Positions 1 to 50,668 of a DNA stretch of 64,000 nt are shown here, piece after piece. The translations under genes were made by a program, and so were the position numbers. Origin of the DNA: Acidimicrobiia bacterium (lineage in GTDB: Bacteria > Actinomycetota > Acidimicrobiia > Spongiisociales > Spongiisociaceae); assembly GCA_009838635.1 (NCBI GenBank), contig VXRE01000020.1, forward strand, positions 2,633-66,632, read 5' to 3'. A model generated the notes under the pieces. It was not told where the DNA came from and did not search any database. It was given only the letters and a program-made list of their open reading frames with translations. Each line of letters opens with the position of its first letter. Within the stretch, counting starts at the first letter, position 1.

Positions 1-1
1 G

Positions 2-175
2 GCCGACGACATCCAGTCCGGTATCGATGCCCTCTTCCAGGCCTCTGCCGTGCTGGCCCAGAAGATGTACGCATCGGAGGCCGAGGAACAGGCGGCCGCC
101 ACCGACGGTCAGGCGATGCCGGATGAAGAGGACATAGTGGAGGCCGAGATCATCGATGAGGGGGAGGACGCTTGA
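2..175 (+). CDS. dnaK: Chaperone DnaK (Hsp70), C-terminal end only; the gene begins upstream of the window
   Basis: Frame is open from the window edge to TGA at 173-175, reading ADDIQSGIDALFQASAVLAQKMYASEAEEQAAATDGQAMPDEEDIVEAEIIDEGEDA. This is an acidic Hsp70-type tail. It lies directly upstream of grpE-dnaJ-hspR. Confidence 0.8.
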   Translation, partial: ADDIQSGIDALFQASAVLAQKMYASEAEEQAAATDGQAMPDEEDIVEAEIIDEGEDA

Positions 176-834
176 CCGGTGCTACCCGGCCGGGTGCCGA
201 TCCTTCCGGCGCTCCGCCTGAGGAGGTGACGAAGCCAACGCCCGAGGAGGTGGTCGAGGCCGTCCTCGAAGACGACCCATGTGACCGGATCGATCACATG
301 GAGCTTCCCGAGGATCCGGACGAGGCCGTGGCGCTCCTGATCAACGAGCTGCTGGCGGCCCGGGAGGCTGCCGAGCAGGCGGAGGACAGGTGGAAGCGGT
401 CGGTTGCCGAGTTCGACAACTATCGCAAGCGCACCGCACGGGCCCGGCAGGAGTCGGTCGCGCGCGCGTCGGAGCGAGTGATGCTCCAGATCCTTCCGGT
501 GCTCGACAGCCTCGACGCCGCCCTGATCATGGAGAGCGCGGACGGGCCCTCGGACGGCGGCTTGCGCCGGGGAATGTCCAGCACGCGGGAGCTCCTGCTC
601 TCTACGCTGTCCCGGGAGGGCCTCGAGCCGATCGCGGCCCTGGGCGCCGGGTTCGATCCCACCCTCCATGAAGCGGCCCAGATGGCCGAGGGGAGCGGCA
701 AGATGGTGGTGACGGCCGAGTTACGGCGTGGCTACCTCCTCAAGGGGAGGGTTGTCAGGCCTGCCCTGGTCGCGGTGGGCTACGAGTCGACCTCACCTTC
801 CGAGGCGGAAGCCGGGGAGGAGGATCCGGCGTGA
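172..834 (+). CDS. grpE: Nucleotide exchange factor GrpE
   Basis: 220-aa ORF with GrpE signatures (AEFDNYRKRTARA, ILPVLDSLDAAL, GYLLKGRVVRPALVAV). The TTG start overlaps the dnaK stop. Confidence 0.9.
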   Translation: MTGATRPGADPSGAPPEEVTKPTPEEVVEAVLEDDPCDRIDHMELPEDPDEAVALLINELLAAREAAEQAEDRWKRSVAEFDNYRKRTARARQESVARASERVMLQILPVLDSLDAALIMESADGPSDGGLRRGMSSTRELLLSTLSREGLEPIAALGAGFDPTLHEAAQMAEGSGKMVVTAELRRGYLLKGRVVRPALVAVGYESTSPSEAEAGEEDPA

Positions 835-853
835 TCCTGTCCGGGGGTCGTCC

Positions 854-1945
854 ATGAACCGCGACTGGCTCGAGAAGGACTTCTACCGGCTCCTCGAGGT
901 GGGGAAGGATGCCGACCAGGCGACCATCAAGAAGGCGTACCGGCGGCTGGCCCAGAAGCTCCATCCGGACGCCAACCCGGACGATCCGAATGCCGCCGAG
1001 CGTTTCAAGGGGGTCTCGGAGGCCTATTCGGTGCTGTCGGACGCCGACCGGCGAAGGGAGTACGACCAGGTCCGCTCCATGGGAGCGCAGGGTTTCGGCC
1101 CGGGGGGCGGCCCATTCGCCGGAGGGCAGGTCCGGATCGAAGACCTGTTCGGCGGTGCGGGGGGCATCGGTGACCTGTTCAACTTCGGCCGGGGTCGCAG
1201 GGGTCCCCAGCGTGGCGCCGATATGTCGGCCACCCTGGACCTGACCTTCGAAGAGTCGATCCGGGGGACCACCAGTCCGGTGCCGGTGCAGGGCGCCGTC
1301 CAGTGCGGGCGCTGTTCGGGCTCGGGAGGGGAGCCCGGGACTCCGGTGGACGTGTGCGGGAACTGCGGTGGCACCGGCACGGTCGCTTCCAACCAGGGCT
1401 TCTTCTCCTTCACCAACCCGTGCCCGGTGTGCGGCGGCGCCGGCAGGAACGTGGAGTCGCATTGCCGCCAGTGCAGCGGCTCCGGCCAGGAAGTCCGGGC
1501 ACGCACCATCAAGGTGCGGATCCCTCCCGGCATCAGGGACGGAAACACGATCCGGCTGAGAGGTCGGGGAGCGCCCGGGCCGAGGGGCGGTCCCCCGGGA
1601 GATCTGCTGGTCAAGGTCAGGGTGGGTCAGCACTCTGTGTTCTCCCGTAAGGGCGACAACCTGACCATGCAGCTGCCGATCACGTTCACCGAGGCGGCGC
1701 TGGGCGCCAAGGTGAGGGTGATGACGCTGAACGGCCCCGTCACGCTCAAGATCCCGGCCGGCACGCCCTCCGGCAAGACCTTCCGGATACGCAAGGAGGG
1801 CGTGCGGAGGGACTCGGGGCGCCCCGGCGACCTGCTGGTCACGGCGCAGGTGACCGTCCCCGAGAAACTGCCGAGAGATGCCAGGAAGCTCCTGGAAGAG
1901 TTCAAGGACAAGTACGAGACCGCTGACCCGCGAGCGCATCTTTAA
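854..1945 (+). CDS. dnaJ: Co-chaperone DnaJ (J domain, G/F region, four CxxCxGxG zinc-finger repeats)
   Basis: From ATG 854: MNRDWLEKDFYRLLEVGKDADQATIKKAYRRLAQKLHPDANPDD (HPD motif). Zinc-finger repeats CGRCSGSG, CGNCGGTG, CPVCGGAG and CRQCSGSG are present. The ORF-track start at 728 is probably too far upstream. Confidence 0.93.
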   Translation: MNRDWLEKDFYRLLEVGKDADQATIKKAYRRLAQKLHPDANPDDPNAAERFKGVSEAYSVLSDADRRREYDQVRSMGAQGFGPGGGPFAGGQVRIEDLFGGAGGIGDLFNFGRGRRGPQRGADMSATLDLTFEESIRGTTSPVPVQGAVQCGRCSGSGGEPGTPVDVCGNCGGTGTVASNQGFFSFTNPCPVCGGAGRNVESHCRQCSGSGQEVRARTIKVRIPPGIRDGNTIRLRGRGAPGPRGGPPGDLLVKVRVGQHSVFSRKGDNLTMQLPITFTEAALGAKVRVMTLNGPVTLKIPAGTPSGKTFRIRKEGVRRDSGRPGDLLVTAQVTVPEKLPRDARKLLEEFKDKYETADPRAHL

Positions 1946-1959
1946 GAAGGAGGTTACGG

Positions 1960-2376
1960 ATGGCCGGCAAGAGAATCTCACCCGAACTGGAGGCGGTCTA
2001 CGTCATCTCGGTCGCAGCCTCGCTATCCGGCATGCATCCCCAGACCCTCCGCATCTACGAGCGAAGGGGGCTGATCGAGCCGTTCCGGACGCCCGGTGGT
2101 ACCCGCCGCTATTCGGATGCCGACCTCGAGCGCCTCTCCCTGATCCAGAATCTGACCGGCCAGGGCATCAACATCGAAGGGGTTAAGCGCATCATCGCCC
2201 TAGAAGAGGAGAACCAGTTCCTACGGGACGAGGTACGGAGGCTGCGCCGCCAGAGGAAGGCCGCTCAGGAGACCGCTATAGCGGCGACCGAAGCGCTGCA
2301 GGAGACGAGGCGCAGCCTGGCCGGCGAGATCCTGGTGCGCCGCGACATCCTCCGCTTCCCCGAGTTCCCGCGGTAG
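1960..2376 (+). CDS. hspR: MerR-family heat-shock repressor HspR
   Basis: 138 aa with a MerR HTH (YVISVAASLSGMHPQTLRIYERRGLIEPFRTPGGTRRYSDADLERL). It occupies the last position of the dnaK operon, as in Actinobacteria. Confidence 0.88.
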   Translation: MAGKRISPELEAVYVISVAASLSGMHPQTLRIYERRGLIEPFRTPGGTRRYSDADLERLSLIQNLTGQGINIEGVKRIIALEEENQFLRDEVRRLRRQRKAAQETAIAATEALQETRRSLAGEILVRRDILRFPEFPR

Positions 2377-2391
2377 CCGGGAGGAGAACAA

Positions 2392-2853
2392 ATGGAGTTC
2401 CAGCCGGTCGGCTTCGGTGGCAGCGAGCGCCCCAGAGTTGTATTGCCCGCCCCCGATCCCGGTTTGTCGGGCCGGATCGGCGCGGCCTCCACGCTCGATG
2501 AACTCGCCCGGGCGGTCGCTGCCCATCCCGACTCGATGGATGCCTGGGCGGCCCTGGGGCAGTGGTACGAGCGGAGCGAGGTTACGGTGGTGAACGCGGT
2601 CGCCGCCTATGCCTGTTTCCGGGTCGGTTACCACCGCGGGCTGGATGCGCTGCGCCGCAACGGCTGGAACGGCAGCCAGTCGGTCAGGTGGGAGGACGCG
2701 CCGAATCGGGGATTCCTGAGGTGCGTTTCAGGACTGGCGCGGATGGCCGACCGCCTCGGTGAGCTCCCCGAAGCCGAGCGATGCGCCCGGTTCCTGATCG
2801 ACCTGGATCCGGACTGGAATCAGTCAACCGGGATGGCGGAACCGGTGGGCTGA
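2392..2853 (+). CDS. Conserved actinobacterial protein, DUF3151-like
   Basis: 153 aa. The segment AYACFRVGYHRGLDALRRNGWNGSQSVRWEDAPNRGFLRCV matches my recollection of the DUF3151 family. The assignment is from memory only. Confidence 0.55.
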   Translation: MEFQPVGFGGSERPRVVLPAPDPGLSGRIGAASTLDELARAVAAHPDSMDAWAALGQWYERSEVTVVNAVAAYACFRVGYHRGLDALRRNGWNGSQSVRWEDAPNRGFLRCVSGLARMADRLGELPEAERCARFLIDLDPDWNQSTGMAEPVG

Positions 2854-2926
2854 TTGACTAGGATTCACCGAGCGGCCCTGCTACCAGGGCTGAACGCTAC
2901 GCGAACCTGAGAGGGGGAATGCATCA

Positions 2927-3172
2927 ATGGCATCTACCGCAGAACGACTCACCAATCTGGTCAACGAGAACATCGAGGTCGATGGCCAGAAGCTGGACAT
3001 CCCGGACGATCTGAACATCAGCCTCATGAACTCCGGTGTGTCCTCCTTGGAGGCCGTTGCCCTGGCGAAGCTGATAACTCAAGAGTTTGGTGTGGAGTTT
3101 GCTGTTGAGGACTGCTACGCGTTAGACACGTTGAAGGATGTCGCAGCCTTTATCGACAGCAATTCCGCCTAG
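2927..3172 (+). CDS. Stand-alone acyl/peptidyl carrier protein-like (phosphopantetheine-binding)
   Basis: 81 aa, acidic and four-helix-like. The candidate attachment serine lies in NSGVSSLEAVALAKLI (compare the DSL motif). Strong SD (gagaggggga) upstream. GC is clearly lower than the flanks. Confidence 0.6.
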   Translation: MASTAERLTNLVNENIEVDGQKLDIPDDLNISLMNSGVSSLEAVALAKLITQEFGVEFAVEDCYALDTLKDVAAFIDSNSA

Positions 3173-3187
3173 CTAGCCCGCAGATGT

Positions 3188-3206
3188 CGGAGCCGATCCG
3201 GCTCCG
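3188..3206. terminator. GC-rich hairpin between the convergent carrier-protein and hydrolase genes
   Basis: CGGAGCCG-atc-CGGCTCCG forms a perfect 8-bp stem with a 3-nt loop. There is no long T tract. Confidence 0.4.
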
Positions 3207-3241
3207 CTCTGCCCTCCTCAACCTCGCGATTCAACGCGACA

Positions 3242-4129
3242 TCAAGTCGTGACCGAGTTGATGTAGTCGCGTACTATCGCCGCGCACTGCTCCGGTTGTT
3301 CGAGCGGAAGAAAATGGGTGGCTTCAGGAAGGAAGTCGTAGTCGACACTCAGCATGTCACTGAGGTCGAGCGTGGGCAGGTACGAGTACGGTACCAATGG
3401 GTCAGCCCCTAAGACCTTGGTCGGGCACTCGAGATCGTTGAAATCCACCAGCACCGAGTACGAGCTGGCGTAGTCGATTATCTGTGCCTCAAATTCCCGG
3501 GGGCATCTAAGCCTGTACGTGTCGTCGGTTCGGTCTTCACGGAGAGTGGTCCTTGCCATCAGATCGAGAACACCCGGTACAACCTGACGGAAGACGGGTG
3601 AGAAGCCGAGAAGCCCCACGAACTCATCGTACGATCGGAACCGGTCGCTACGACGGCGTGCGATGGCCGCTGTACGGGTAGCGGCTATGTCGAACTCCTC
3701 GTAGCTCCTACCCGGAGTGCAAAGAGGTGGATCCAGCAGGATCCGTGCCGCGAAGCCGCTTCCCCGTGTAGGGGACAGGAGGCTTACCAGTCCCGACAAG
3801 GAATGGAAGACACCTATCTTCGGTTTCTGTCCATAGGTTTCATCAATGGCCTCTAGAATATTGTCATGATCCTTAATAAACGTAGGTATGGTGTGGGCTC
3901 TCAAAGAGCCTGTTTCGTTCCATCCATGGTTCCTTAAATCGTAGAGTATTATATCACAATCTTTGGCGAGTAACGACCAGAATGGTAAATATAGATCAAT
4001 AGCCAGTCCGTTACCGTGACTCAGTACGAGCCGCGGACCCGAGGCTCTTCCGTGGCGGCGCAGAGTGATTCGGGTGCCGTCCTCCAGACGGACACCGTGC
4101 ACCGAACTCGGTTCCGGAACCTTCCACAC
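3242..4129 (-). CDS. Alpha/beta-fold hydrolase
   Basis: 295 aa. It has an oxyanion-type LSHGNG, a nucleophile elbow VFHSLSGL, and a C-terminal EATHFLPLEQPE (catalytic His region). The 5' half of the gene is markedly AT-rich. Confidence 0.8.
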   Translation of the reverse strand: MWKVPEPSSVHGVRLEDGTRITLRRHGRASGPRLVLSHGNGLAIDLYLPFWSLLAKDCDIILYDLRNHGWNETGSLRAHTIPTFIKDHDNILEAIDETYGQKPKIGVFHSLSGLVSLLSPTRGSGFAARILLDPPLCTPGRSYEEFDIAATRTAAIARRRSDRFRSYDEFVGLLGFSPVFRQVVPGVLDLMARTTLREDRTDDTYRLRCPREFEAQIIDYASSYSVLVDFNDLECPTKVLGADPLVPYSYLPTLDLSDMLSVDYDFLPEATHFLPLEQPEQCAAIVRDYINSVTT

Positions 4130-4200
4130 AGGGTCCGAACCCTAACCAAGCCGACGACCCTGCATGTTCGTCCGGCTGATCGCCGATCTGGAAGGCTGCG

Positions 4201-5151
4201 ATGGATGGCGGGGCAACGTCCTACAATCGGCGCATGACCGAGACCGACCGCCGACCGATCGACTACATCGCCGTGACCAGGGAGACCTACGCCCAGCTGG
4301 GTTACCAGCCCTACCGCTGGGCCCTCAACGAAGACCCGCCTTCGTGGGCCACGCTCGGCAAGCCGCTCTCGGAAGCCCGGCTGGGCTTGATCGCCTCGGG
4401 TGGGATCTACCGGCACGGGCAGGTGGCCTTCACCCACCGCGATGACGTGACCCACCGGGAGATCCCCACCGACGTGGACAGCGCCGAAGTCCGGGTGACT
4501 CACTTCGCCTTCGATCCGGCCGCCGCCCGGCGGGATCCCAACGTGGTCTTCCCGATCGACACCCTTCGTCATCTGGTTGCCGAGGGCACTGTGGGGGAGC
4601 TGGCGCCGCTGGCGCTCACCTTCATGGGCGGCATTTACTCGCAGCGCCGGCTGGCCTCCGAACTGATCCCGGTACTAGTGGACCGTGTCCTCGAATTGGA
4701 GTTGGACGCGGTGCTGCTGGTACCTGTCTGACCGGTGTGCCACCAGTCAGTTGGGCTGGTCAGTAGGGCGATCGAGCGCAAGGGCGTGCCCACCCTGTCC
4801 ATGACCAGCGCCCACTCCATCACGGCATCGGCCAACCCGCCTCGGGCGGCCTTCACCGACTTCCCGCTGGGTCACACCTGCGGGCCGCCTGACCGGCCGG
4901 TGGAGCAGCGGTCGATCATGCGCGACGCCCTGGCGCTGTTCGAGACCATGGACCGGCCGGGAATCGTGGACCTGGGCTACACGTGGCCCGCGCCATGGAA
5001 GGAAGCAGCGCTGCGACCGGGGGATCATCGCACCCCTCGTCACGACACCCCCCAGTACCAGAATCGGGATGACCGGGAGGCCGCGGTGGTGGCATACGGG
5101 GTCGGGATCGCCTGCCGGGCCGGCATCCCGGGCGATGTGCCCCGCTGCTGA
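4201..5151 (+). CDS. Glycine/sarcosine/betaine reductase component B (GrdB)/PrdB-family protein with one in-frame TGA (4729-4731); candidate selenocysteine
   Basis: ORFs 4201..4731 and 4735..5151 are in the same frame, separated only by TGA plus one codon. Read-through gives ...AVLLVPV-U-PVCHQSVGLVSRAIERKGVPTLSM, a U-x-x-C redox motif. An alternative start is ATG 4234. Confidence 0.6.
4742..4760 (+). promoter_or_regulatory. Candidate bacterial SECIS-like hairpin downstream of the in-frame UGA
   Basis: A-CCAGUC / GGCUGG-U forms a 7-bp stem (one G-U pair) with apical loop AGUUG. It starts 11 nt after the UGA. Folded by eye only. Confidence 0.35.
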
Positions 5152-6050
5152 TGGTCTCCGAACTGTTCGATCCGCTTGCCTGGCGCCCGGTAGAGGGTCT
5201 CTCCTTCGACGACATCACCTACCACCGGGCGGTCGATCAGGGAACGGTACGGGTGGCTTTCGATCGACCCGAAGTGCGCAACGCCTTCCGGCCGCAGACG
5301 GTGGACGAGCTCTATGTCGCCCTCGATCATGCCCGCCAATGGAGCGACGTGGGGACCGTCCTGCTCACCGGGAACGGCCCGTCTCCCAAGGATGGAGGTT
5401 GGGCTTTCTCCTCAGGCGGGGACCAGCGCATCCGCGGTAGAGCCGGTTACATGTACGCCGAGGGTGAAGGCGCCGCGGACATCGACCCCGCCCGTCTCGG
5501 AAGGCTCCACATCCTCGAGGTCCAGCGCCTGATCCGGTTCATGCCCAAGGTGGTCATCGCGGTGGTGCCGGGTTGGGCGGTAGGGGGTGGTCATAGCCTC
5601 CACGTGGTCTGCGACCTGACCCTGGCCTCGGAGGAGCACGCCGTCTTCAAGCAGACCGACTCCGATGTGGCCTCGTTCGACGCCGGATTCGGGTCGGCCT
5701 ACCTGGCCCGCATGGTGGGCCAAAAGCGGGCTAGGGAGATCTTTTTCCTCGGCGCCGACTACTCGGCCACGGAAGCCTTTCGTATGGGGATGGTCAACAA
5801 GGTGGTGCCTCATGCGGACCTGGAGGAGACCGCGCTGGAGTGGGCGGGGATCATCAACGCCAAGAGCCCCATGTCGCAGCGGATGCTCAAATTCGCCTTC
5901 AACCTGATCGATGATGGTCTGGTGGGCCAGCAGGTCTTCGCCGGCGAGGCCACCCGCCTCGGCTACATGACCGAAGAGGCCCAGGAGGGGCGGGATGCCT
6001 TCGTGGAGAAGCGTCCCAAGGACTTCTCGCGCTTCCCCCGTTATTACTAG
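5151..6050 (+). CDS. menB: 1,4-dihydroxy-2-naphthoyl-CoA synthase
   Basis: 299 aa with a crotonase fold and MenB-specific stretches (GNGPSPKDGGWAFSSGGDQRIRG, VPGWAVGGGHSLHVVCDLTLAS, EGRDAFVEKRPKDFSRF). Its ATG overlaps the upstream TGA by 1 nt. Confidence 0.93.
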   Translation: MVSELFDPLAWRPVEGLSFDDITYHRAVDQGTVRVAFDRPEVRNAFRPQTVDELYVALDHARQWSDVGTVLLTGNGPSPKDGGWAFSSGGDQRIRGRAGYMYAEGEGAADIDPARLGRLHILEVQRLIRFMPKVVIAVVPGWAVGGGHSLHVVCDLTLASEEHAVFKQTDSDVASFDAGFGSAYLARMVGQKRAREIFFLGADYSATEAFRMGMVNKVVPHADLEETALEWAGIINAKSPMSQRMLKFAFNLIDDGLVGQQVFAGEATRLGYMTEEAQEGRDAFVEKRPKDFSRFPRYY

Positions 6051-6085
6051 TTTCTAGTTGTTAGTTACTAGTTGCTAGTTATTGG
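6048..6085. repeat. CTAG-heptad array, locus A (direct heptads only)
   Basis: TAG TTTCTAG TTGTTAG TTACTAG TTGCTAG TTATTGG. The first TAG is the menB stop. CTA at 6075-6077 is the stop of the minus-strand small ORF. Confidence 0.8.
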
Positions 6086-6257
6086 TGGAGTCGATTTTAC
6101 TTTGTTGCGCTAGGTAGAGCCAGCCGAGGCCATGAAGGGCCACGCCGATGAGCAGAACGAGGGTGACCAACCAGTGGCCGAGAACCGCGGCGAACAGGGC
6201 AGCGATCACCGCCAGCGTCACCAGCGCCGACCGTACACCGTTCAGGGGTCCGTACAT
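6075..6257 (-). CDS. Small hypothetical membrane protein (two predicted TM helices)
   Basis: 60 aa, hydrophobic (ALVTLAVIAALFAAVLGHWLVTLVLLIGVALHGLGWLYL), with GC-rich third positions except in the last ~12 codons, which run into the heptad array. No SD is visible. Confidence 0.45.
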   Translation of the reverse strand: MYGPLNGVRSALVTLAVIAALFAAVLGHWLVTLVLLIGVALHGLGWLYLAQQSKIDSTNN

Positions 6258-6266
6258 GCCGCCAGT

Positions 6267-6374
6267 CTAGGAGGGTGCTGAAAAAGACGGGGATTGGTTG
6301 CCCTCGGCTTCTTCACCTGGGGGTTCAATCGAGTCGTTCGGGCCACCTGGACGTTTTTCAGTACCCTCCTAAGG
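6267..6374. repeat. 108-bp element bounded by long inverted repeats (structured RNA or MITE-like)
   Basis: Left arm TAGGAGGGTGCTGAAAAAGACG (6268-6289) pairs with right arm CGTTTTTCAGTACCCTCCTA (6352-6371). That gives 18 contiguous pairs (one G-T), plus 2 more after a 2-nt bulge, enclosing 62 nt. Confidence 0.6.
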
Positions 6375-6501
6375 AGCGGGGCGTCAGTATCCTCAGCGGG
6401 GTATCCGCTAGCGACTTGACGGCTGGATTCACCGGAGCGAGGGTTTCAGGGGACTGGTGTGGCGACGGCGCCCGCCCGTCCTCATGTGGAGACTGGAGAC
6501 G

Positions 6502-6945
6502 ATGATGGACAACGAAGTCTGGAGATGGGTGTGGACCGGCCTGGCCCTGCTCATGGGTCTCGGGGAGATAGTCACGGCCGGGTTCTTCCTGCTCCCGTTC
6601 GCGATCGGCGCCGGCCTCGCCGCCATTGCTGCCTGGACAGGAGTGAGCGACATCGTCCAGTGGTTGCTCTTCTTCGTCGGTACCGGGATCTCCTTCCTGT
6701 ACGTGCGCCGCTTCATGAGGGCCCAGGATGAGGACGGGGGGCTGGTGGTGGGGCCCGGTCGCTACGTCGGGATGGAGGCCCTGGTGCTGGAGACGATCGA
6801 CACCGGCGCCAACACCGGGTTGATCAGGGTCGAGGCGGAGGAGTGGCGGGCCGTCACCGAAGGTGAGCCCATTGCCGAGGGTGGAAGGGTCGAAGTTGTG
6901 GACCTGCGAGGTACCCGCCTGGTTGTCAGACCACTAGACCGGTAG
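6502..6945 (+). CDS. NfeD-family membrane protein
   Basis: N-terminal TM helices ([37 protein letters not shown]) plus a C-terminal OB-like domain ([37 protein letters not shown]). It lies directly upstream of an SPFH gene, the classic pairing. ATG 6502 is preferred over the ORF-track start at 6457. Confidence 0.8.
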
Positions 6946-6970
6946 AGACCAACAAAGAAAGGACAATCCG

Positions 6971-7888
6971 ATGGAGGTAGCGGGCGTATTGCTCTTGGGC
7001 ATCATTGCCCTGGCGGTCTTGCTGATCGCAGCGAGCGGATTCCGTATCGTGCGGCCGTACGAGCAGGGTCTGATCGAGTTCCTCGGCAAGTACCAGAGGA
7101 CCGTCTCGCCCGGGCTCCGGTTCGTCATCCCGTTCGTGCAGAGAATCCTCAAGGTGGACATGCGCGAGCAGGTGGTGGACGTGCCGCCGCAGGAGGTCAT
7201 CACCAAGGACAACGTGGTGGTCACGGTGGACGCGGTGATCTACTTCGAGGCGACCGATCCGGTGAAGCTCAAGTACGCGGTCGGGAACTTCATCCTGGCC
7301 ATCACCAAGCTGGCCCAGACCAACCTGCGTAACGTGGTCGGCGACCTCCAGCTCGACGAGGCTCTGGTCTCCCGCGAGGTCATCAACAGCAAACTCCGCC
7401 AGATCCTCGACGACGCCACCGACAAGTGGGGCACCAGGGTGGTCAGGGTGGAGATCCAGCGGATCGAGCCGCCGCCGGACGTGACCGAAGCCATGCACCG
7501 CCAGATGAAGGCGGAGCGAGGCCGTCGGGCGGTGGTGACCGAAGCCGAGGGAGACAAACGATCCGCCATCCTCAAGGCCGAGGGCGTCAAGCAGGCCGCG
7601 ATCCTCCAGGCCGAGGGCGAGGCCGAGGCCATCAAGCGGGTGGCCGACGCAGACAAGTACCAGAAGCTGACAGTGGCCGAAGGTGAGGGACAGGCCATCG
7701 AACGGGTCTTCCTGGCGATCCACAACGGCGATCCGACCGATGACCTGATCGCTATCAAGTACCTGGAGGCCCTGCAGGGCGTAGCCGACGGTCAGGCCAC
7801 CAAGATATTCCTACCGCTCGACACGTCGGGCCTATTGGGCGCGGTGGCCGCGATCGGCGAGATGTTCAAGGAAGGCGCAACCGAATAG
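6971..7888 (+). CDS. SPFH/Band-7 (stomatin/prohibitin-like) protein
   Basis: 305 aa with an N-terminal TM helix, an SPFH core ([36 protein letters not shown] ... [12 protein letters not shown]) and a coiled-coil tail. Confidence 0.9.
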
Positions 7889-7973
7889 TTGCTAGTTGCT
7901 AGTCGTTAGCTAATGGTTACTAACCACGTGTTTTTCAACTAGCAACTAGCAACTACAAACTAGCAACTAGCTA
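7886..7973. repeat. CTAG-heptad inverted array, locus B (putative bidirectional terminator/insulator)
   Basis: Left arm: TAG TTGCTAG TTGCTAG TCGTTAG. Right arm: CAACTAG CAACTAG CAACTAC AAACTAG CAACTAG CTA. Positions 7886-7902 are perfectly complementary to 7939-7955 (17 bp). The outer TAG and CTA are the stops of the two convergent genes. Confidence 0.85.
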
Positions 7974-8714
7974 AAGGATCTGGCTGAGGAAGAGCTTGGT
8001 GCGGTCGTGCTGGGGGTTATGGAAGAAGTGCTCCGGAGTTCCCTCCTCCACCACCATCCCGTAGTCGAAGAAGAGCACCCGATCGGCGACTTCCCGGGCG
8101 AAGCCCATCTCGTGGGTGACCACGATCATCGTCATGCCCGACTCGGCCAGTTCCTTCATCACGTCGAGGACTTCCTTGATCATCTCGGGGTCGAGCGCCG
8201 AGGTGGGCTCGTCGAAGAGCATGATCTTCGGGTTCATGGCCAGGGCGCGGGCGATGGCCACCCGCTGTTGCTGGCCTCCCGATAGCTGGCCCGGGTACTT
8301 GTGCGCCTGCTCCGGTATGCCGACCCGCTCCAGCAGTTTCATGGCGGCGGCCTCGGAGGACGACCTGGTCCGGTTACGAGCCCAGATCGGCGCCAGGGTG
8401 ATGTTCTGCATGACCGTGAGATGGGGGAACAGGTTGAACTGCTGGAACACCATGCCGACCTCGCGGCGGATGGCGTCGATGTTGCGGAGGTCGTTGGTCA
8501 ACTCCATCCCATCGACCACGATCCGCCCTGCCTGATGGGCCTCGAGGCGGTTTATGCAACGGATGAAGGTGGACTTGCCGGAGCCGGAGGGTCCGATCAC
8601 CACCACCACCTCGCCCCAGCCGATCGAGGTTGACACCCCGCTCAGAGCCTGGAAGTCACCGAACCACTTCTTTACGTCCTCGCAGATGATCGCCTGGGAT
8701 CCGTTGGTGGTCAT
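7971..8714 (-). CDS. Polar amino-acid ABC transporter ATP-binding protein (AapP/GlnQ-like)
   Basis: 247 aa with Walker [10 protein letters not shown], signature [19 protein letters not shown], Walker [13 protein letters not shown] and an H-loop VTHEM. Confidence 0.92.
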
Positions 8715-8738
8715 TACATCCTCCTCAGTGATTCGGCA

Positions 8739-11225
8739 TCAGCGTTCTCCAAGACCGAGGCTGCGCTCGTAGCGCATGCTCAGCTTCGAGATCGTGAAGG
8801 TAACTATCCAGTAGAACAACGCCATGAAGAACATCATCTGGGGCAGGGTGCCCTGGAAGTTGGGGTCGCTCTGCTGAGGTATGAAGCTGCGAGCGATCAG
8901 CAGGATGTCGGCCAGCCCGATTATGGCCACCAGCGAGGTGTCCTTGAAGGCGACGATGATCGACCCGACCAGCGCCGGGATCACCGTCCGCACCGCCTGG
9001 GGCAGGATCACCAGCGAGGTGGACTGGACGATGCTCAGGCCGGCAGCCCTGGCCGCCTCGTACTGGCCCCGGTCGATGGCCTGCAGTCCCCCCCTGATGT
9101 TCTCGGCCACATAGGCCGAGTTGAAGATGGTGATGGCCGCGACTATCCGGACGATCTCGTCGAACTCCACTCCGGCCGGAAGGAAAGCGGTCAGCATGGC
9201 CGAGCCGAAGAACAGCCAGGTGATCATCGGCACGCTTCGGACCAGTTCGATGTACCCGGTGGCCAGCAGCCGGAAGATGGGCATCGAGGAGGTTCGCGCC
9301 AGGGCGAGGATCAGGCCGACGGGAAGGGACAGTGCGATGCCGCTGACGGCCAGCAGGATGGTCAGGTTGAAACCGCCCAGGAAGGTGGTTCCCTGGAACT
9401 CGAGGGATGTGCTGGCAGCGCCCAGCCGGAACCCCACCACTGTCAGCACCGCAACGACTGTCCAGGCTCGGACCAGGTTGGTCCTTCCCCGCTGGGTTCC
9501 TCCGAAGGTCGGCGTCACCAGCAGGAACAGGGTGAAGGCGACTATCAGTGTGCGGTAGAGGAAGGGCATCGGGATGAACCAGATCGACAGGCACACCACC
9601 GCAAGGCCCGCAGCCGATGCGCGAACCTTCTCCACCGGCTCTTTGATCGTGAAGGCGGCGGCAAGTATTGCCAGGCCGACCAGCACCAACCCCACGGTGA
9701 GCCAGAGCGGCTCCTCCCCGGAGGCGAATGGCAGGGCTGCTGTCACCAGCCCGATGGCCGCCACCACCGCGGTGGAGGCATGCCCTCTCGGGGGGAGGCC
9801 CAGGACCCAGAGCGCGCCGCCACCCAGTGTCACTGCCAGGAGGATGGAGACGACATCCGAGCGCACGAAGGCGGTCAGGCCCGATTCGTCGACGAACGTG
9901 GCACCCAGCCGGAACGCCACCACCGTCAGCACCGTGGCCGCCACCCAGACCCGGACCAGGTAGGTCCTCCCCCGCTGCGTTCGTCCCACGGTGGGCGTTA
10001 CGAGCAGGAACAGGGTGAAGGCGGTGACCAGGACCCGGAACAGGAACGGCATCGGGACGAGCCAGATCAACAGGCAAGCCAGGACAAGGCCGGCAGCCGC
10101 CGCCCTGACCGTCACCACCGGCTCCTTGATCGTCAGGGCGGCGATCAGTGTCGCCAACCCGATCAGCACCAACCCCGCCGCGACCCAGAGCGGCTCCTCG
10201 CCGGAAGTGAGTGGCAGGGCGGCTATCACCAGCCCGATAGCCGCCACCACCGCGGCGCCGGTCGGTCCTCTGGGCAGAGCGACCAGCACCCGGAGCGCGC
10301 CGGCGCCCAGCACTATGCCCAGCAGCAAGATCATGTCGGTCCAGTCGAGGACCGGGTTGCGCTGGATGATGAAGATGATCACCGGATAGGACAGGACCCA
10401 GGCCGAGATGAGGAACCGCCGGAAGGCGCGGGGCCAGATGCGTTCGATCAGGATCCCGAGGGGGTAGACGGCCACCGCCAGCACGAACAGAGTCGTCCAC
10501 GGGCCGGCGGTGGTGGCGGCTATCGGTGCGGTGGTCTGGTCGAACTGGCCCAACGGGACCGGGAGTTCCATGGTCCATAGGAGCGCGGCCACCGCCGCCA
10601 TGACCATCACCGGCACGCTCAGCAGCGGGATCGTCGGTGACGGATCGGCGGCGCGGCTCCACCGGACGCCGAAGTGGGCCAGGACGGCCACCAGGACCGC
10701 GGCCACGAGTATCCAGGCACGTACGCTGCTCCAGTTGGCGGGCGAGTCGAACTGCAGGCCGGGAATACCGAAGGTGCGCGCCTCGGCCGCATGGTGCATG
10801 ATCGCCGTCACCGCCACCAGGACAGCGCCGCTCCTCAAGCCTCCCGCGAAGGTGGTGAGCTCGAGCCGTCCTCCTACCTTCCAGGACGCCATGGACCAGA
10901 CCACCAGGACAATGAATATGCCCAGGGACGTCCAGATCCGGATCAGGTCGTCCTGCGGGAAGGCCTGGACCATCAGCAGCTTCGCATTGTGGGTGACCGC
11001 CGCCCACTTGCGTTCCGGAGCGAAGAGGTACGAGGTGATGAACCGCAGGATGTTCAGGAGCACCAGGGCGAATGCCAGGGTGAGGAACGAGTTGAAGGCG
11101 ATCTGTCCCCAGGTGTGGCCCGAGAAGAGGTTATCGCGCATCCAGCGCCACGGCCCGGTGGGCGGGGGCTCGGGAGCCCGCTCGGTCATGTCGGCGGCAA
11201 CGGCGGCGGATGCGGGGTCAGTCAT
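8739..11225 (-). CDS. Amino-acid ABC transporter permease (AapM/His-Glu-Gln-Arg-opine family core) with a ~600-aa polytopic N-terminal extension
   Basis: The C-terminal ~220 aa carry the canonical permease core (RTSSMPIFRLLATGYIELVRSVPMITWLFF ... EAARAAGLS ... ILPQAVRTVIPALVG). The preceding part is all TM helices and includes a tandem duplication. Confidence 0.8.
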   Translation of the reverse strand: MTDPASAAVAADMTERAPEPPPTGPWRWMRDNLFSGHTWGQIAFNSFLTLAFALVLLNILRFITSYLFAPERKWAAVTHNAKLLMVQAFPQDDLIRIWTSLGIFIVLVVWSMASWKVGGRLELTTFAGGLRSGAVLVAVTAIMHHAAEARTFGIPGLQFDSPANWSSVRAWILVAAVLVAVLAHFGVRWSRAADPSPTIPLLSVPVMVMAAVAALLWTMELPVPLGQFDQTTAPIAATTAGPWTTLFVLAVAVYPLGILIERIWPRAFRRFLISAWVLSYPVIIFIIQRNPVLDWTDMILLLGIVLGAGALRVLVALPRGPTGAAVVAAIGLVIAALPLTSGEEPLWVAAGLVLIGLATLIAALTIKEPVVTVRAAAAGLVLACLLIWLVPMPFLFRVLVTAFTLFLLVTPTVGRTQRGRTYLVRVWVAATVLTVVAFRLGATFVDESGLTAFVRSDVVSILLAVTLGGGALWVLGLPPRGHASTAVVAAIGLVTAALPFASGEEPLWLTVGLVLVGLAILAAAFTIKEPVEKVRASAAGLAVVCLSIWFIPMPFLYRTLIVAFTLFLLVTPTFGGTQRGRTNLVRAWTVVAVLTVVGFRLGAASTSLEFQGTTFLGGFNLTILLAVSGIALSLPVGLILALARTSSMPIFRLLATGYIELVRSVPMITWLFFGSAMLTAFLPAGVEFDEIVRIVAAITIFNSAYVAENIRGGLQAIDRGQYEAARAAGLSIVQSTSLVILPQAVRTVIPALVGSIIVAFKDTSLVAIIGLADILLIARSFIPQQSDPNFQGTLPQMMFFMALFYWIVTFTISKLSMRYERSLGLGER

Positions 11226-11226
11226 G

Positions 11227-12804
11227 TCAGCGCTCCACCAGAGCCATCTTGCGGTTGTAGTAGTTCACGATGCCCGACAGGATCAGGCTCACGAGCGAGT
11301 AGAAGCCCATCCAGAAGATGAACACCGCCAGCGCCTGGCCTTCCTGGTTGAAGATGGTCTGGCCGACCTGGACGATGTCGGCGTAGGCCACGGCGATACC
11401 CAAGGAGGTGTTCTTGGCCAGGTTCAGATACTGGGAACCGAGCGGGGGAAGGATGATCCGGAAGGCTTGGGGCAGCACGACCAGGCGCAGCACCTGGCCC
11501 CGGCGCAGACCGACCGCCGCGGCGGCCTCACCCTGACCGCGCGGCACGGCCATGATCCCGGCCCGCACGATCTCGGCGATGAAGGCGGCGGTGTAGAGCG
11601 TGACTCCCATCCAGACCGCCATGAAGCCCGGTGTGAGTGCCTTACCGACCTCGTGGGAGTACTGGGGGAATCTGGTGGGCACCACCACCTCGGGAAGGGT
11701 GAAGCGCAGGGGGGCGCCGCCGGCAAAGTCGAACCGTGACGCCAGGAAGTCGAAGAGCGGCTCGAATCCCCAGTTCATCTGGTACCAGAGCGTCCGTCCC
11801 AGAACACTGGAGAGGGTTGCCTGCCCGGCCCCGGATACGAAGAACAGCATCACCCCGACTCCCACCAAGGCCGCCACCGCCAAGCGGAAGTAGTCGTCAT
11901 CCGAGAGTTTGGCCATCCCGGCGGGCGACCGGAGCCGCCTCAGATAACGCACTATGTATAGGGCCGCCAGCACGACAGCGAGGGCGGCCAGTACCAGCTG
12001 GAGACCGATCACCGGTACCACCGCGGCCACCCAGGCGAGGGCGGTGAACAGCCATCCCAATACCCCGGCGGCGGGATGGGCGAACCATCCTCCCACCAGG
12101 AAGACGGCGAAAGTGGCAATCGACCAAGCGAAGGCGTGGGTATCGTGCCCCTCTCGCTCCTGGAGCGCGATCCGGCGCCGGTACACCCAGCGGGCCGCCA
12201 CCACGCCGAGGATCAGCACCACGGTGTACTGCCAGCGGCCGGCCAGGGGGGTGAGCCAGGGCATGGCGATGCCCTTGGGGCTGGCGAACAGCCACCGGGG
12301 CCCCTCCATCTCGGGGGTCAGGTCCGGCAGGAGGCCGACGATCAGCGCCTGCCAGAAGAGGATCTGGACGAGCAGCGGGATGTTGCGGAAGAACTCGATG
12401 TAGGCGTTGGCGATCCTGGAGACGATCCAGTTGGACGACAGCCTCGAGATCCCGATCACCGTGCCGAGGATGGTGGCAGCGATGACACCGCTCCAGGTGA
12501 CCCTCAGCATGTTCACCATTCCCACCGCCAGCGCCTCCAGGCCCGACTCGGGATCGGTGTTGAACCCCTCGCCGAGCTTGACGCCCAGTGGTTCGCCCAG
12601 GAAGTCCCACGAGAAAGGGATGCCGGTAGCCCGAAGATTGCTGGTGGCCTGGGTTATGACGACATAGCCCAGCCAGAGGAGGCCGACGAGGATGCCGATT
12701 TGCGTCGCCCATTTGATGACGACCACGTTGCGCCATATGGGTACGCGGGTCTGAGAGGATCGGTCGGGGGGCGTGACCAATTGACCTTCCGTTCTAGCCG
12801 GCAC
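11227..12804 (-). CDS. Amino-acid ABC transporter permease (AapQ-like), enlarged
   Basis: 525 aa. The N-terminus resembles AapQ (IWRNVVVIKWATQIGILVG ... FSWDFLGEPLGVKLGEGF). The C-terminal core has EAAAAVGLRRGQVLRLVVLPQAFRIILPPLGSQYLNLAKNTSLGIAVAY. Confidence 0.85.
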   Translation of the reverse strand: MPARTEGQLVTPPDRSSQTRVPIWRNVVVIKWATQIGILVGLLWLGYVVITQATSNLRATGIPFSWDFLGEPLGVKLGEGFNTDPESGLEALAVGMVNMLRVTWSGVIAATILGTVIGISRLSSNWIVSRIANAYIEFFRNIPLLVQILFWQALIVGLLPDLTPEMEGPRWLFASPKGIAMPWLTPLAGRWQYTVVLILGVVAARWVYRRRIALQEREGHDTHAFAWSIATFAVFLVGGWFAHPAAGVLGWLFTALAWVAAVVPVIGLQLVLAALAVVLAALYIVRYLRRLRSPAGMAKLSDDDYFRLAVAALVGVGVMLFFVSGAGQATLSSVLGRTLWYQMNWGFEPLFDFLASRFDFAGGAPLRFTLPEVVVPTRFPQYSHEVGKALTPGFMAVWMGVTLYTAAFIAEIVRAGIMAVPRGQGEAAAAVGLRRGQVLRLVVLPQAFRIILPPLGSQYLNLAKNTSLGIAVAYADIVQVGQTIFNQEGQALAVFIFWMGFYSLVSLILSGIVNYYNRKMALVER

Positions 12805-12923
12805 TCAGACAATACCAACTAGGAGGTGGTCTGGCTGTGGAACAGGGGAGCGGGGTGGCTTCGGCAGCGGCGCCGATGACTGCCAGAGCACGCCTGGTTG
12901 TTGACAGACAGAACGCATACGCG

Positions 12924-12954
12924 AGGAGGGGGCACCTGGCCGGTGCCCCCTCCT
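12924..12954 (-). terminator. Intercistronic 12-bp GC hairpin between the binding-protein gene and the permease genes (partial terminator or mRNA stabiliser)
   Basis: AGGAGGGGGCAC-ctggccg-GTGCCCCCTCCT forms a perfect 12-bp stem, 22 nt downstream of the binding-protein stop. Confidence 0.5.
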
Positions 12955-12975
12955 TGTTTCCGATTGACTTGGTTG

Positions 12976-14121
12976 CTACCGGGCCGGTGGTGCGTAGACC
13001 AGACCGCCCTCGGTCCAGCGGGCGTTGGCAGACCCGGCTCGGGCGAACCCGAGCGGGTGCAGGTTGTTGACGTAGATCTCGTCATAGTTGCCGACCTGCC
13101 GGATGGCCTGGGCATACGCGTCAGCCGCCAGACCCATCTTGGTCTGAAGCTCGTCCTCGCCTACGCCGAGGAAGCGACCCGCTTCGGGGTCGGGCGGGTT
13201 CGCCACCATCTCGTCGATGTTCTGGGAGGTGACTCCCTTCTCGTCGGCGATGATCAGGATGTACACCAACCAGTTCACCACGTCGGCCCACTGGCTGTCG
13301 TTCTGCCGGTACATGGGGCCGAGCGGCTCCTTGGAGATCGGGGTGGTCGGGAAGATGATCCAGTCTCCCTCGGCAATCTCGCCGTTCTGGATGGCGGCAT
13401 AGCGATGGCCGAAGAGGGCCGAGCCGTCGGTGGTCACCAGGTCGCAGGAACCCGCCCGGAAGAGATCCATGGCCTCCGGGAAGTTCTCCACGGTCACCAG
13501 CTCGATCTCGGCGCCGACCACGCGGGCGCCCTCGGTGATGTTCTTCTCGGTGGTGGTACCGGCGTTGGTGCAGAGCCTGGCGCCGTCCACGTCCACCAGA
13601 GTCGAGGCATCGTTGAATCCGAAGTCGGCCTTGCCCATGATCTGCTGTCCGTCGTAGAACGTGGTGGGCCCGAAGTCACCGCCGATCTCCGTATCCCGGC
13701 TCTGGGTCCAGGTGGTGTTACGGAACAGCACGTCGACCTCACCGGCGGCCAGCACGTTGAAGCGCTCGGCGGCGGTGGTGCCCACGAACTCGACGGCGTT
13801 GGCATCACCGAGCACGGCCGCGGCAAGAGCGCGGCAGTAGTCGGCGTCGAATCCGATGTAGGAGCCGTCGTCCTGGGGCTCGGCGAAGCCGATGGCGGCG
13901 GTCGACACGCCGCATCTCAGGCTACCGCGGGCCTGTATCTCGGCCAGCGTGCCGCCCTGACTGGGTACGACCACCACTTCCTCGGGCTGGGTGGTGGTTG
14001 CCTGGGTTGCCGCTGTGGTCGTCTCCTGGGCGGCTGTCGTGGCGGCCGGCTCGTCGTCGGCTCCGCACGAAGCAACGACCATCGCAAGCACCACGAACAG
14101 TGGTACGAGCCTTCGAGTCAT
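12976..14121 (-). CDS. Amino-acid ABC transporter substrate-binding lipoprotein (AapJ-like)
   Basis: From ATG 14121: MTRRLVPLFVVLAMVVASCGADDE, a signal peptide plus lipobox. The remainder is periplasmic-binding-protein family 3-like. The ORF-track start at 14280 is probably too long. Confidence 0.85.
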   Translation of the reverse strand: MTRRLVPLFVVLAMVVASCGADDEPAATTAAQETTTAATQATTTQPEEVVVVPSQGGTLAEIQARGSLRCGVSTAAIGFAEPQDDGSYIGFDADYCRALAAAVLGDANAVEFVGTTAAERFNVLAAGEVDVLFRNTTWTQSRDTEIGGDFGPTTFYDGQQIMGKADFGFNDASTLVDVDGARLCTNAGTTTEKNITEGARVVGAEIELVTVENFPEAMDLFRAGSCDLVTTDGSALFGHRYAAIQNGEIAEGDWIIFPTTPISKEPLGPMYRQNDSQWADVVNWLVYILIIADEKGVTSQNIDEMVANPPDPEAGRFLGVGEDELQTKMGLAADAYAQAIRQVGNYDEIYVNNLHPLGFARAGSANARWTEGGLVYAPPAR

Positions 14122-14185
14122 AAGTAGGCCCCTTTCGGTTCTCGCGTTTAGGTTCGGCATCATCCCCACCTGCCGGGACTTCTGG

Positions 14186-16036: not shown

Positions 16037-16115
16037 TGTCAATACTCTACAGGCGAAACCCGGTTCACCGCCCAACTTCGCAGGGTGACCGAAAATACCC
16101 GGGCAAATGGGCCTT

Positions 16116-16778
16116 TCAGCCTCCCGGTCCCTGACCGGGCGCCCGCTCCCGGGAGCGTTCCAGCATCTCGACCACCGTGGCGTCCGGAGTGGGGCGGAAG
16201 TCGCGGTAGAACATGCCGATGGCCGCGAACCGCCGCGGCGTGTGCGCCACCACCAACTCGTCAGCCACCTCCGCGAATATCGCCGATGCGTCGCGGGGAG
16301 CGACCGGCGCGGTCAATACGACCCGACCGGCCCCGAGGCGACGGGTGATCAGGCAGGCGGCCCGGGCTGTGGCCCCCGTGGCGATGCCGTCATCGACGAT
16401 CACCGCGGTCTTGCCCCCCAGGTCTGCGGGAGGGGCTTCGCCCCGGAACCGTTCCGCCTGGCGGGCCAACTCCCGGCGCTCTCGCCGTTCAACCCGTTCG
16501 ACGGCCTCCGGCCGGATCCCGAGCCTTTCGATCCGCCGCTCATCCAGGACGCGTACCCCGCCCTCCCCGATGGCGCCCATAGCAAGCTCCGGCTGGGTCG
16601 GTACTCCCAGCTTGCGGACCAGCAACACCTCCAGGGGGGCGGCAAGGTGCCGCGCGATCTCGTAGCCGACCGGGACCCCGCCCCTGGGCAGGCCCAGGAT
16701 CACGGTGGGCTCGTTGCCGAGGTGGTCCAGCATGCCTGCCAGCACCCGGCCGGCGTGCGACCGGTCGGTGAACCTCAT
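16116..16778 (-). CDS. Phosphoribosyltransferase-family protein
   Basis: MRFTDRSHAGRVLAGML ... ILGLPRGGVPVGYEIA ... VIVDDGIATGATARAA (PRPP-binding loop). Confidence 0.8.
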   Translation of the reverse strand: MRFTDRSHAGRVLAGMLDHLGNEPTVILGLPRGGVPVGYEIARHLAAPLEVLLVRKLGVPTQPELAMGAIGEGGVRVLDERRIERLGIRPEAVERVERRERRELARQAERFRGEAPPADLGGKTAVIVDDGIATGATARAACLITRRLGAGRVVLTAPVAPRDASAIFAEVADELVVAHTPRRFAAIGMFYRDFRPTPDATVVEMLERSRERAPGQGPGG

Positions 16779-16891
16779 GCCTCGTTCCGTGTCATGCGGT
16801 GATTGTGCCATCGGGCAGGGCTAACCTGCCCTCCGGGCCGGTACGGATACGGCCTCGAAGAACGTTCTTTCAATCGGAATGGTGGCACGAT

Positions 16892-17959: not shown

Positions 17960-17967
17960 GGGCCTTA

Positions 17968-17991
17968 CCGCGGGGCGGTTGCGGCTTTTTT
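17968..17991 (+). terminator. Weak hairpin followed by T6 after the MscS gene
   Basis: CCGC-ggggcggtt-GCGG then C TTTTTT. The stem is short (4-6 bp). This is the only clear T tract in the neighbourhood. Confidence 0.35.
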
Positions 17992-18080
17992 CGCGGACTC
18001 GTTCGATCATGGCCCATCGCGGAACTTGTCCGGCCGGGCTGGGCTAAGGTTCCTGCCCGTGCTGGTTACCGCGGCTCGGT

Positions 18081-18944: not shown

Positions 18945-18985
18945 CGCCAGATCAATCACCCGCCGGGAGTATCCTTCCCCCACAG

Positions 18986-40687: not shown

Positions 40688-40705
40688 CCCTCGGTCAGGT
40701 GGCTC

Positions 40706-40742: not shown

Positions 40743-40765
40743 CAACCGGCAACTACCAACTAGGT

Positions 40766-50657: not shown

Positions 50658-50668
50658 AGTCGGTGGGA

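Follow-up and report, generated by a model that had tools for sequence, protein, structure and literature searches.

What kind of element closes convergent genes in a 64,000-nt stretch of an Acidimicrobiia bacterium (GTDB family Spongiisociaceae; NCBI GenBank assembly GCA_009838635.1, contig VXRE01000020.1, positions 2,633 to 66,632 of the forward strand), hereafter called the window? At several junctions where two genes end face to face, short tandem arrays of a heptad with a CTAG core, most of them laid out as two arms across a spacer, contain the stop codons of both genes. A preliminary description, prepared from the letters of this DNA alone, had suggested a dedicated bidirectional terminator or translation insulator, a protein-binding array, or a small mobile palindromic element targeting gene 3' ends. 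We observed that the heptad repeat family at convergent gene ends in the window is real and that, in this lineage, the arrays are confined to such ends and rewrite the adjacent stop codons. They are a lineage-specific, slippage-prone simple-sequence repeat with CTAGTTG and its one-mutation neighbors as units.

The archetype lies at 7886-7973, where our reading agreed letter for letter with the preliminary description:

6971-7888, + strand: Band_7/SPFH gene, whose stop TAG (7886-7888) opens the left arm as its first unit.
7886-7909: left arm, TAGTTGC TAGTTGC TAGTCGT TAG (direct reading and Tandem Repeats Finder, TRF).
7910-7935: AT-rich spacer of 26 nt, the loop, which contains a small hairpin and ends in T5.
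7936-7973: right arm, CAACTAG CAACTAG CAACTAC AAACTAG CAACTAG CTA, that is, five heptads, two of them degenerate, plus CTA (direct reading and TRF).
7971-8714, - strand: ABC-transporter ATPase gene; its stop is the CTA at 7971-7973 inside the right arm.

Positions 7886-7902 are the exact reverse complement of 7939-7955, so that the 17-bp perfect pairing claimed for this site holds. The inverted architecture recurs, as had been noted, at 42540-42647 and 48821-48883, and the supposed half-copy is a one-armed array at 6047-6081:

42223-42543, + strand: ribosomal protein L28 gene; its stop TAG (42541-42543) lies within the first CTAG.
42540-42567: left arm, three CTAGTTG plus CTAGTTT (direct reading and TRF).
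42568-42609: AT-rich 42-nt spacer.
42610-42644: right arm, AAACTAG CAACTAC AAGCTAG AGACTAG AAACTAG (direct reading and TRF).
42627-43424, - strand: ABC-transporter ATPase gene, 3' end overwritten by the array; its stop is the CTA at 42627-42629.
46611-48824, + strand: Fe-S/CCG-domain oxidoreductase gene; its stop TAG (48822-48824) lies within the first CTAG.
48821-48848: degenerate left arm, CTAGTTT CTAGTTA CTTGCGA CTAGTCA.
48859-48883: right arm, three CTAGCAA plus CTAG; the CTA at 48880-48882 is the stop of the gene that follows.
48880-49515, - strand: 211-aa gene with no Pfam match, ending inside the right arm.
6047-6081: one-armed array, CTAGTTT CTAGTTG TTAGTTA CTAGTTG CTAGTTA (direct reading and TRF).
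40721-40765: GC-rich degenerate heptad series, xCAACxx six times with CTAG (40760-40763) at its end, inside a GC-rich hairpin at the junction of the cation-efflux (+ strand) and Amt (- strand) genes.

The array at 6047-6081 contains the stops of an enoyl-CoA hydratase gene (5151-6050, + strand) and of a putative 60-aa open reading frame (ORF) without a Pfam match (6075-6257, - strand). The heptad series at 40721-40765 is likely a decayed array. A separate sequence, CTAGTTTCCACGTCATCTAG, at 51815-51834 follows and includes the stop of the gene at 51291-51818 at a tandem junction; its TAGTTT start equals the first unit of two arrays, and it may be a seed or a remnant.

We read this genome over the window and 8.7 kb beyond it. 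The window is ~66% G+C and carries mainly housekeeping genes (dxs, MscS, hydantoinase, UbiA, CtaA, MMPL, LppX_LprAFG and F420-type enzymes), a set that looks actinobacterial (Acidimicrobiia-like). In it, TRF confined period-7 arrays of at least three copies to the four sites at 6047, 7886, 42540 and 48821, with 2.6 to 5.1 copies per arm; its other period-7 row was GAGGACC (2.3 copies, at 38144). The tetranucleotide CTAG, given in the preliminary description as generally under-represented in bacteria, is indeed avoided here, with 56 occurrences in 64 kb where base composition would predict 203 and a Markov model 90; 25 of these 56 fall inside the four sites, which together span ~330 nt (~0.5% of the window). 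Whereas the 64-kb window holds four to five array sites, period-7 arrays of at least three units were absent from an unrelated 858-kb metagenome sample made up of loci chosen only for an Amt gene.

The gene map was drawn with our own codon-score caller, which missed a few genes (for example, 3242-4129 on the - strand), so that the true number of convergent junctions in the window is about 10 to 13. On this map, arrays stand at 4 of ~10 convergent junctions compared with 0 of 38 tandem and 0 of 10 divergent ones (p = 0.0005, Fisher test), and the tie to convergent junctions thus stands within the window (4 of ~10 vs 0 of ~48 others). The convergent excess was retained when only gaps of at least 20 nt were considered (p = 0.0026). 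The 8.7 kb beyond the window adds two convergent junctions without arrays. All arrays are intergenic and close to stop codons; we rejected their absence within genes as evidence, since that argument is circular when three units stop every frame.

Each of the eight ORFs flanking the four sites stops with TAG, in seven cases at the first unit. The claim that the outermost TAG or CTA always serves as the stop of the flanking gene therefore applied in seven of eight cases and failed for the ABC ATPase at 42627-43424 (- strand), which reads two heptads inward; the last two units of the right arm at 42610-42644 encode its C terminus (...AMLVSSL-stop). Stop codons in all six frames, as proposed, were found at all four sites. 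This follows from the unit itself: because a period of seven does not divide by three and CTAG contains TAG on either strand, an array of at least three units stops every frame and can thus adjoin or overwrite the stops of two facing genes harmlessly. Apart from the arrays, TAG ends 25 of the 58 called genes in the window (43%), or 17 of 50 when the array-flanking genes are excluded. At 66% G+C, TGA is expected to dominate among stop codons, and the TAG share of the window seems high.

Comparison with close relatives revealed how the arrays change. Two related loci, L003 and L004, have flanks 97 to 98% identical to the window and yet differ from it by whole heptads at the 7886 site: with identical flanks, the left arm in L003 is one heptad shorter, and in L004 the left arm has gained one heptad and the right arm has lost one. 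The 6047 array is strongly diverged in L003, and the array at 48821-48883 is unchanged in four related assemblies. Overall, arrays diverged at 0.13 to 0.18 differences per nt compared with 0.021 to 0.027 in adjacent DNA, i.e., 5 to 9 times faster. The predicted stability of the 7886 hairpin stayed between -31 and -42 kcal/mol in all three strain variants.

At the L28/ABC junction, the strain represented by L123 (98 to 99% identical to the window) carries a 456-nt GC-rich noncoding spacer (L123:16871-17328, orthologous to window 42541-42645) in place of the 103-nt heptad array; in that strain, the L28 stop is TGA and the ABC C terminus reads ...AMGAG-stop, compared with TAG and ...AMLVSSL-stop in the window. 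An insertion, a decayed gene or another element are possible origins of that spacer. A further species, represented by L190, whose Amt protein is 90% identical to that of the window, has a short heptad series at the same junction, (YAGTGGN)4 followed by (CAACTAS)2, together with an L28 stop region reading TGACTG where the window reads TAGTTG, hence a TGA stop, and an ABC end of ...AMGSG-stop. We conclude from L123 and L190 that the TAG of L28 and the C terminus of the ABC protein in the window are derived, through in-register spread of the array, and from the heptads already present in L190 that the array predates the strain split. The Amt/cation-efflux junction of L190, orthologous to the one in the window, bears a canonical inverted array (-33 and -34.6 kcal/mol; z scores, -6.2 and -7.3), which backs the view of 40721-40763 as a relic. 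Orthologous junctions, whose comparison had been proposed, thus display heptad copy number variation and one case of presence or absence (L123). A junction thus keeps its array from species to species, although the array sequence is replaced. Loci of relatives with 65 to 70% Amt identity contained no arrays.

Two other repeats were seen in related DNA. A more distant relative without heptad arrays has a perfect palindromic hairpin with CTAG on either side (L198:2861-2900; CTAGtgtcctgtctggttgattaaccagacaggacaCTAG). About 6.7 kb past the right end of the window (L270:18966-19245), a composite repeat of ~275 nt lies at a convergent junction between a PDZ-protease gene (+ strand) and FtsH (- strand); it consists of a ~30-nt direct repeat, ccataccacaccgccattacccagacagac, present twice, inverted copies of gtggtctgtctg, and CTAG at each end, and represents a different repeat type in the same convergent-junction niche.

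The same arrays, identical or varying by heptads, were present in independent assemblies of several samples (the NCBI metagenome-assembled genome [MAG] GCA_009843115.1, three ENA assemblies of different samples and a Logan assembly); several of the ENA and Logan assemblies bear the label ENGE20-1, which probably stands for a marine-sponge metagenome study. The source is itself a MAG, and low-complexity repeats are prone to misassembly, but this recurrence excludes an assembly artefact, and intact housekeeping genes flank the arrays with frames that end inside them; an assembly or vector artefact is a vanishingly improbable account.

We next consider folding. The three inverted-pair sites were predicted to fold to -29 to -42 kcal/mol with z scores down to -5.9, placing a stable stem-loop directly 3' of the gene:

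Site 7886: + RNA, -36.8 kcal/mol, z = -5.9; - RNA, -41.6 kcal/mol, z = -5.9.
Site 42540: + RNA, -35.9 kcal/mol, z = -2.4; - RNA, -34.0 kcal/mol, z = -2.1.
Site 48821: + RNA, -17.0 kcal/mol, z = -1.4; - RNA, -28.7 kcal/mol, z = -4.1.
Site 6047: weak on both + and - RNA.

Convergent junctions without arrays carry GC-rich hairpins at 50609-50668 (z of about -2) and 40688-40765 (- RNA, -39.7 kcal/mol, z = -2.9). With DNA parameters, single arrays of (CTAGTTG)6 and (CAACTAG)6 reached -2.9 and -3.3 kcal/mol, not better than shuffled sequences; as RNA, (CUAGUUG)6 folds on itself at -17.9 kcal/mol (z = -3.7).

Is the placement a property of the repeat or of this lineage? Scanning species-representative genomes with an exact 18-mer of the repeat yielded at least 118 loci, and exact (CTAGTTG)n arrays occurred in at least 13 phyla among the matches listed, to which all counts in this and the following paragraph refer. 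By our own tally from record titles, the loci belong to Acidobacteriota (30), Planctomycetota (21), Bacteroidota including Ignavibacteria (20), Gammaproteobacteria (14), Cyanobacteria (8), Firmicutes (6), Alphaproteobacteria (4), Actinomycetota (4), Patescibacteria (3), Betaproteobacteria (2), Chloroflexota (2), Verrucomicrobiota (1) and Archaea (1), with 2 unplaced. Arrays were mostly unpaired, and most lay at tandem junctions (70), with 21 at convergent ones, including the four of the window, and 7 at divergent ones, against a background of 70, 15 and 15%, so that the divergent share is 7 of 98. The claim of convergent-only placement thus stands within the window and fails as a property of the repeat, ~70% of whose arrays in other phyla are tandem; this mix indicates that convergent specificity belongs to this lineage. 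The period is specific in these loci, which were chosen for the unit, with 178 period-7 arrays compared with 3 to 11 for each of periods 5, 6, 8 and 9, and units other than CTAGTTG are mostly its one-mutation neighbors.

In several phyla, a lone array was seen to span a convergent gap exactly and to supply both stops, and in three loci (L013, L106 and L110) arrays occupy almost all gaps of an 8-kb stretch. In L110, an unrelated alphaproteobacterium, tandem junctions carry inverted CTAG-heptad arrays 3' of the stop codons, and one that we examined closely has a T-rich tract 3' of the stem, resembling an intrinsic terminator. The order within inverted pairs was CTAGTTG then CAACTAG in 11 cases and the reverse in 5. 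A sense-strand (CUAGUUG)n tail for each gene was considered and rejected, as tandem junctions showed 28 CUAGUUG-sense and 42 CAACUAG-sense arrays; the weak bias in pair order led us to drop the sense-tail idea as a rule. In a Thermoguttaceae MAG (L013: 203-303, 1380-1468, 6318-6424 and 6830-6900), a conserved motif with a GC-rich hairpin (CTAG tgacgcgctggcgcggg...) is fused to the arrays, appears at four junctions within 8 kb and looks like a composite dispersed element. In a Verrucomicrobiia MAG (L108:1677-1796), in L011 and at window 40721-40763, CTAG is replaced by CTGG or CCGG; CTGGTTG and CCGGTTG arrays are matched by CAACCAG on the opposite arm, giving GC-richer heptad versions with corresponding changes in the two arms.

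In viral contigs, CTAGTTG was found at 14 loci, same-composition control heptads at 4, 12, 24 and 9, and GGGAATC at 7. We therefore rejected the notion of CTAGTTG as an exceptionally common heptad, since it is no commoner there than scrambled heptads. In the same type of data (IMG/VR), exact arrays of TAACTGA (2.6 copies) occurred at no fewer than 120 loci, compared with 4 to 24 for the other six heptads, and several contigs had multiple dispersed copies.

Do the arrays belong to anything already described? Rfam matched no family to any array, its sole match in the window being tRNA-Met at 18985-19058, and the literature searched held nothing relevant on the CTAGTTG unit or its 14-mers. The statement that no such family is described is thus right for the unit and wrong for the class, because intergenic heptamers near stops, rare between divergent genes and frequently present as inverted pairs, are on record (PMC4692102 and PMC4679880). 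By sequence type, the arrays belong to the heptanucleotide simple-sequence repeats, with CTAGTTG as a new unit of that class. Closest are the GGGAATC arrays of Xanthomonas, 89 to 93% of which are intergenic and nearest to the stop codon of the upstream gene (Rehm et al. 2015, PMC4692102). These and the GGGGA(C/T)T arrays of Nostoc share with ours the tandem 7-nt unit, the intergenic position near an upstream stop and the rarity between divergent genes (PMC4692102). GGGAATC arrays also vary in length and sequence among close relatives at conserved positions, and their inverted pairs, 70 to 75 per genome, can form stem-loops (PMC4692102). Unlike CTAGTTG, GGGAATC is a G-rich, G-quadruplex-forming unit without a palindromic CTAG core or stops in all six frames; it lies between convergent genes in only 16% of cases (7 to 8% divergent, ~65 to 70% co-oriented), and is not reported as supplying both stop codons (PMC4692102).

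The TAACTGA repeats of marine Beggiatoaceae, Cyanobacteria and Bacteroidetes are likewise stop-bearing heptamers that cannot extend far into genes, and they too are intergenic, patchily spread over distant phyla and variable in copy number (MacGregor 2015, PMC4679880). They differ in stopping one strand only, in occurring as 169 direct sets and one indirect set, and in lying immediately upstream of start codons, where they have no predicted structure and a proposed role as a site of translational regulation (PMC4679880). As related in PMC4679880, heptanucleotides were the most frequent long repeat in the majority of genomes according to Mrazek et al. (2007), who suggested polymerase slippage; PMC4692102 likewise cites an over-representation of heptamers and three heptanucleotide repeats in Calothrix. 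These repeats and the cyanobacterial short tandemly repeated repetitive sequences resemble the CTAGTTG arrays in period, lineage-specific units and slippage; in what PMC4679880 and PMC4692102 relate of them, they have other units and no stated tie to convergent junctions or stops. What sets the CTAGTTG arrays apart is their palindromic amber core, the six-frame stops, arms that directly abut the stop codons of both genes, and a broad spread over phyla, for which scrambled-heptad controls come from viral contigs only.

Other gene-end elements are more distant. In bidirectional intrinsic terminators and in the U-tract-less gene-end hairpins of actinobacteria, as proposed for the inverted arrays, one hairpin serves both convergent transcripts. 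Canonical bidirectional terminators differ in having a GC-rich stem with A and U tracts, whereas array stems are 38 to 44% GC, and of the hallmarks of an intrinsic terminator the arrays display the stem-loop but not the U-tract. Repetitive extragenic palindromic (REP) elements are conserved imperfect palindromes of ~35 nt, thought to be mobilized by REP-associated tyrosine transposases (RAYTs). REP elements and the mosaic elements built from them (BIMEs) in E. coli resemble the arrays as repeated extragenic hairpins 3' of genes, convergent ones included, with strain-variable locations, and REP elements act as terminators and mRNA stabilizers, also between convergent genes (bioRxiv 10.64898/2026.03.23.713779). 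Unlike the arrays, REP elements are not tandem microsatellites and have no stop-codon role; conversely, the arrays lack a shared imperfect palindrome, their arms being variable numbers of heptads and their spacers unrelated and 26, 42 and 10 nt long. Array units are contiguous and have no spacers between them, which separates them from CRISPR arrays.

How, then, might the arrays work? We lean, by a modest degree, toward slippage repeats that, when present as inverted pairs, serve as two-way hairpins at gene 3' ends, a function that we infer. Heptads occupy short gaps 3' of genes, where they expand, contract and differ by 7-nt units as replication slippage would give. In a facing pair of arrays (CTAGTTG... 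then ...CAACTAG), the transcript from either side would fold a 17- to 27-bp AT-rich hairpin right after its stop codon, and such a hairpin could serve as a two-way 3'-end element, being a pause or termination signal as well as a barrier to 3' exonucleases, and may keep convergent transcription out of the opposing gene. The TAGs of the array might catch read-through ribosomes, with six-frame stops as a by-product or safeguard. The niche would be the one held by E. coli REP elements and, where other genes converge in this genome, by GC-rich hairpins. Conservation of position across species despite sequence turnover speaks for such a role, as do the strong predicted folds and their retention in all three strain variants, the tie to convergent junctions in the window, the GC-rich hairpins at array-free junctions, the inverted arrays of L110, and the published parallels in Xanthomonas and in REP elements.

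Several observations weigh against it. No U-tract was found 3' of any stem, where bases such as CUAAAGG or UAUUCGG stand instead, and the stems are AT-rich. A simple terminator scan of window 1-20000 did not flag the array sites; the terminator-like sites that it found there numbered 7 compared with 7.8 expected, not above chance. The 6047 array lacks a partner arm and folds weakly, and strain L123 does without any L28/ABC array. Among the matches listed from other phyla, ~70% of arrays are at tandem junctions, and 16 inverted pairs stand against 121 unpaired arrays of at least three units. The sample is small, with 10 to 13 convergent junctions in the window plus the two array-free ones outside it. 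Finally, inverted arrays of one repeat pair automatically in many registers, so that stability could be retained without selection.

Much of this would be expected of a neutral or selfish microsatellite that slips wherever it is seeded and survives only in convergent gaps, which hold no promoter, ribosome-binding site or operon read-through, with hairpins as a by-product of opposed arrays. We consider this possible though unlikely. Rapid turnover and copy number change fit it, as do the loss in L123 without visible consequence, the one-armed array at 6047, the predominance of unpaired arrays among the matches listed from other phyla, the lone arrays that completely fill convergent gaps in several phyla, and the ordinary abundance in viral contigs (14 loci vs 4 to 24). 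It does not readily account for three of the four window sites and the L190 Amt site having both arms within 100 nt and in the same order, which would be rare under independent seeding, nor for a position kept across species and a decayed copy that retains a strong hairpin. In addition, arrays are absent from 20 tandem gaps of at least 20 nt, which suggests that they are harmful there and hence have polar or termination activity.

Binding by a protein that recognizes CTAG (or YAG) at 7-nt spacing, such as an AT-preferring nucleoid-associated protein or an RNA-binding regulator, appears improbable. The CTAG core is constant while the other three bases vary (TTG, TTT, TTA, TGG and GGG), three heptads by our reckoning make two helical turns, the arrays form islands of 31 to 44% GC in a 66% GC genome, and RNA-binding proteins were proposed for the TAACTGA repeats (PMC4679880); yet the idea lacks a known candidate protein, the number and sequence of units vary freely from strain to strain, and the core decays to CTGG, CCGG or GTAG while the position stays. 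Still less probable is a small palindromic element, similar to REP or to transposable elements of the miniature inverted-repeat type (MITEs), that a transposase moves to gene 3' ends, although presence or absence at the L28/ABC junction between strains 98 to 99% identical, the composite-like arrays of the Thermoguttaceae MAG and the occurrence of the unit in many phyla could be read that way. The window copies share no spacer or other internal core sequence, terminal inverted repeats or target duplication, and vary by whole heptads; the only polymorphic site is a replacement of 103 nt by 456 nt that alters both gene ends, at a junction where L190 already has heptads. No transposase or RAYT was among the scanned or annotated genes of the window (Pfam), the rest of the genome lying outside that search. 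We therefore set aside the mobile element put forward in the preliminary description.

A broader conjecture extends the favored hairpin role across phyla. CTAG-core heptads may be a recurrent gene-end device in at least 13 phyla, with a palindromic amber core and period of seven that were selected repeatedly or spread horizontally; such a unit would uniquely join six-frame stops to a self-pairing, resizable hairpin, giving a tunable two-way insulator, possibly with a dedicated binding or generating protein. We regard this as doubtful.

Elsewhere, the window contains a gene for a PIN-domain protein of toxin-antitoxin type (26111-26524) and, at ~62870-63200, a HicB-like antitoxin with a short HicA-like ORF, according to the annotation in L270/L271. 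The cation-efflux gene (39545-40687) has in-frame tandem repeats near its 5' end, at 39593-39747 (period 15/30, CACGATCATCCCGGC-like; five CCACGG), which are probably a repetitive N-terminal tract of the protein.

Array sequence can rewrite the stops and last residues of neighboring genes (L28, TGA to TAG; ABC protein, ...AMG(A/S)G-stop to ...AMLVSSL-stop), and gene callers need caution because stops and C termini beside arrays are unstable. The arrays are also hypervariable strain markers for uncultured symbionts and a natural cassette of a six-frame stop plus a hairpin. Should they be neutral, they would still show cleanly in which places heptad repeats are tolerated by selection. Given a real hairpin role, a plain microsatellite would be a compact two-way gene-end signal whose length is retuned by strain-level slippage, which bears on how transcription ends between convergent genes in high-GC bacteria with few canonical terminators.

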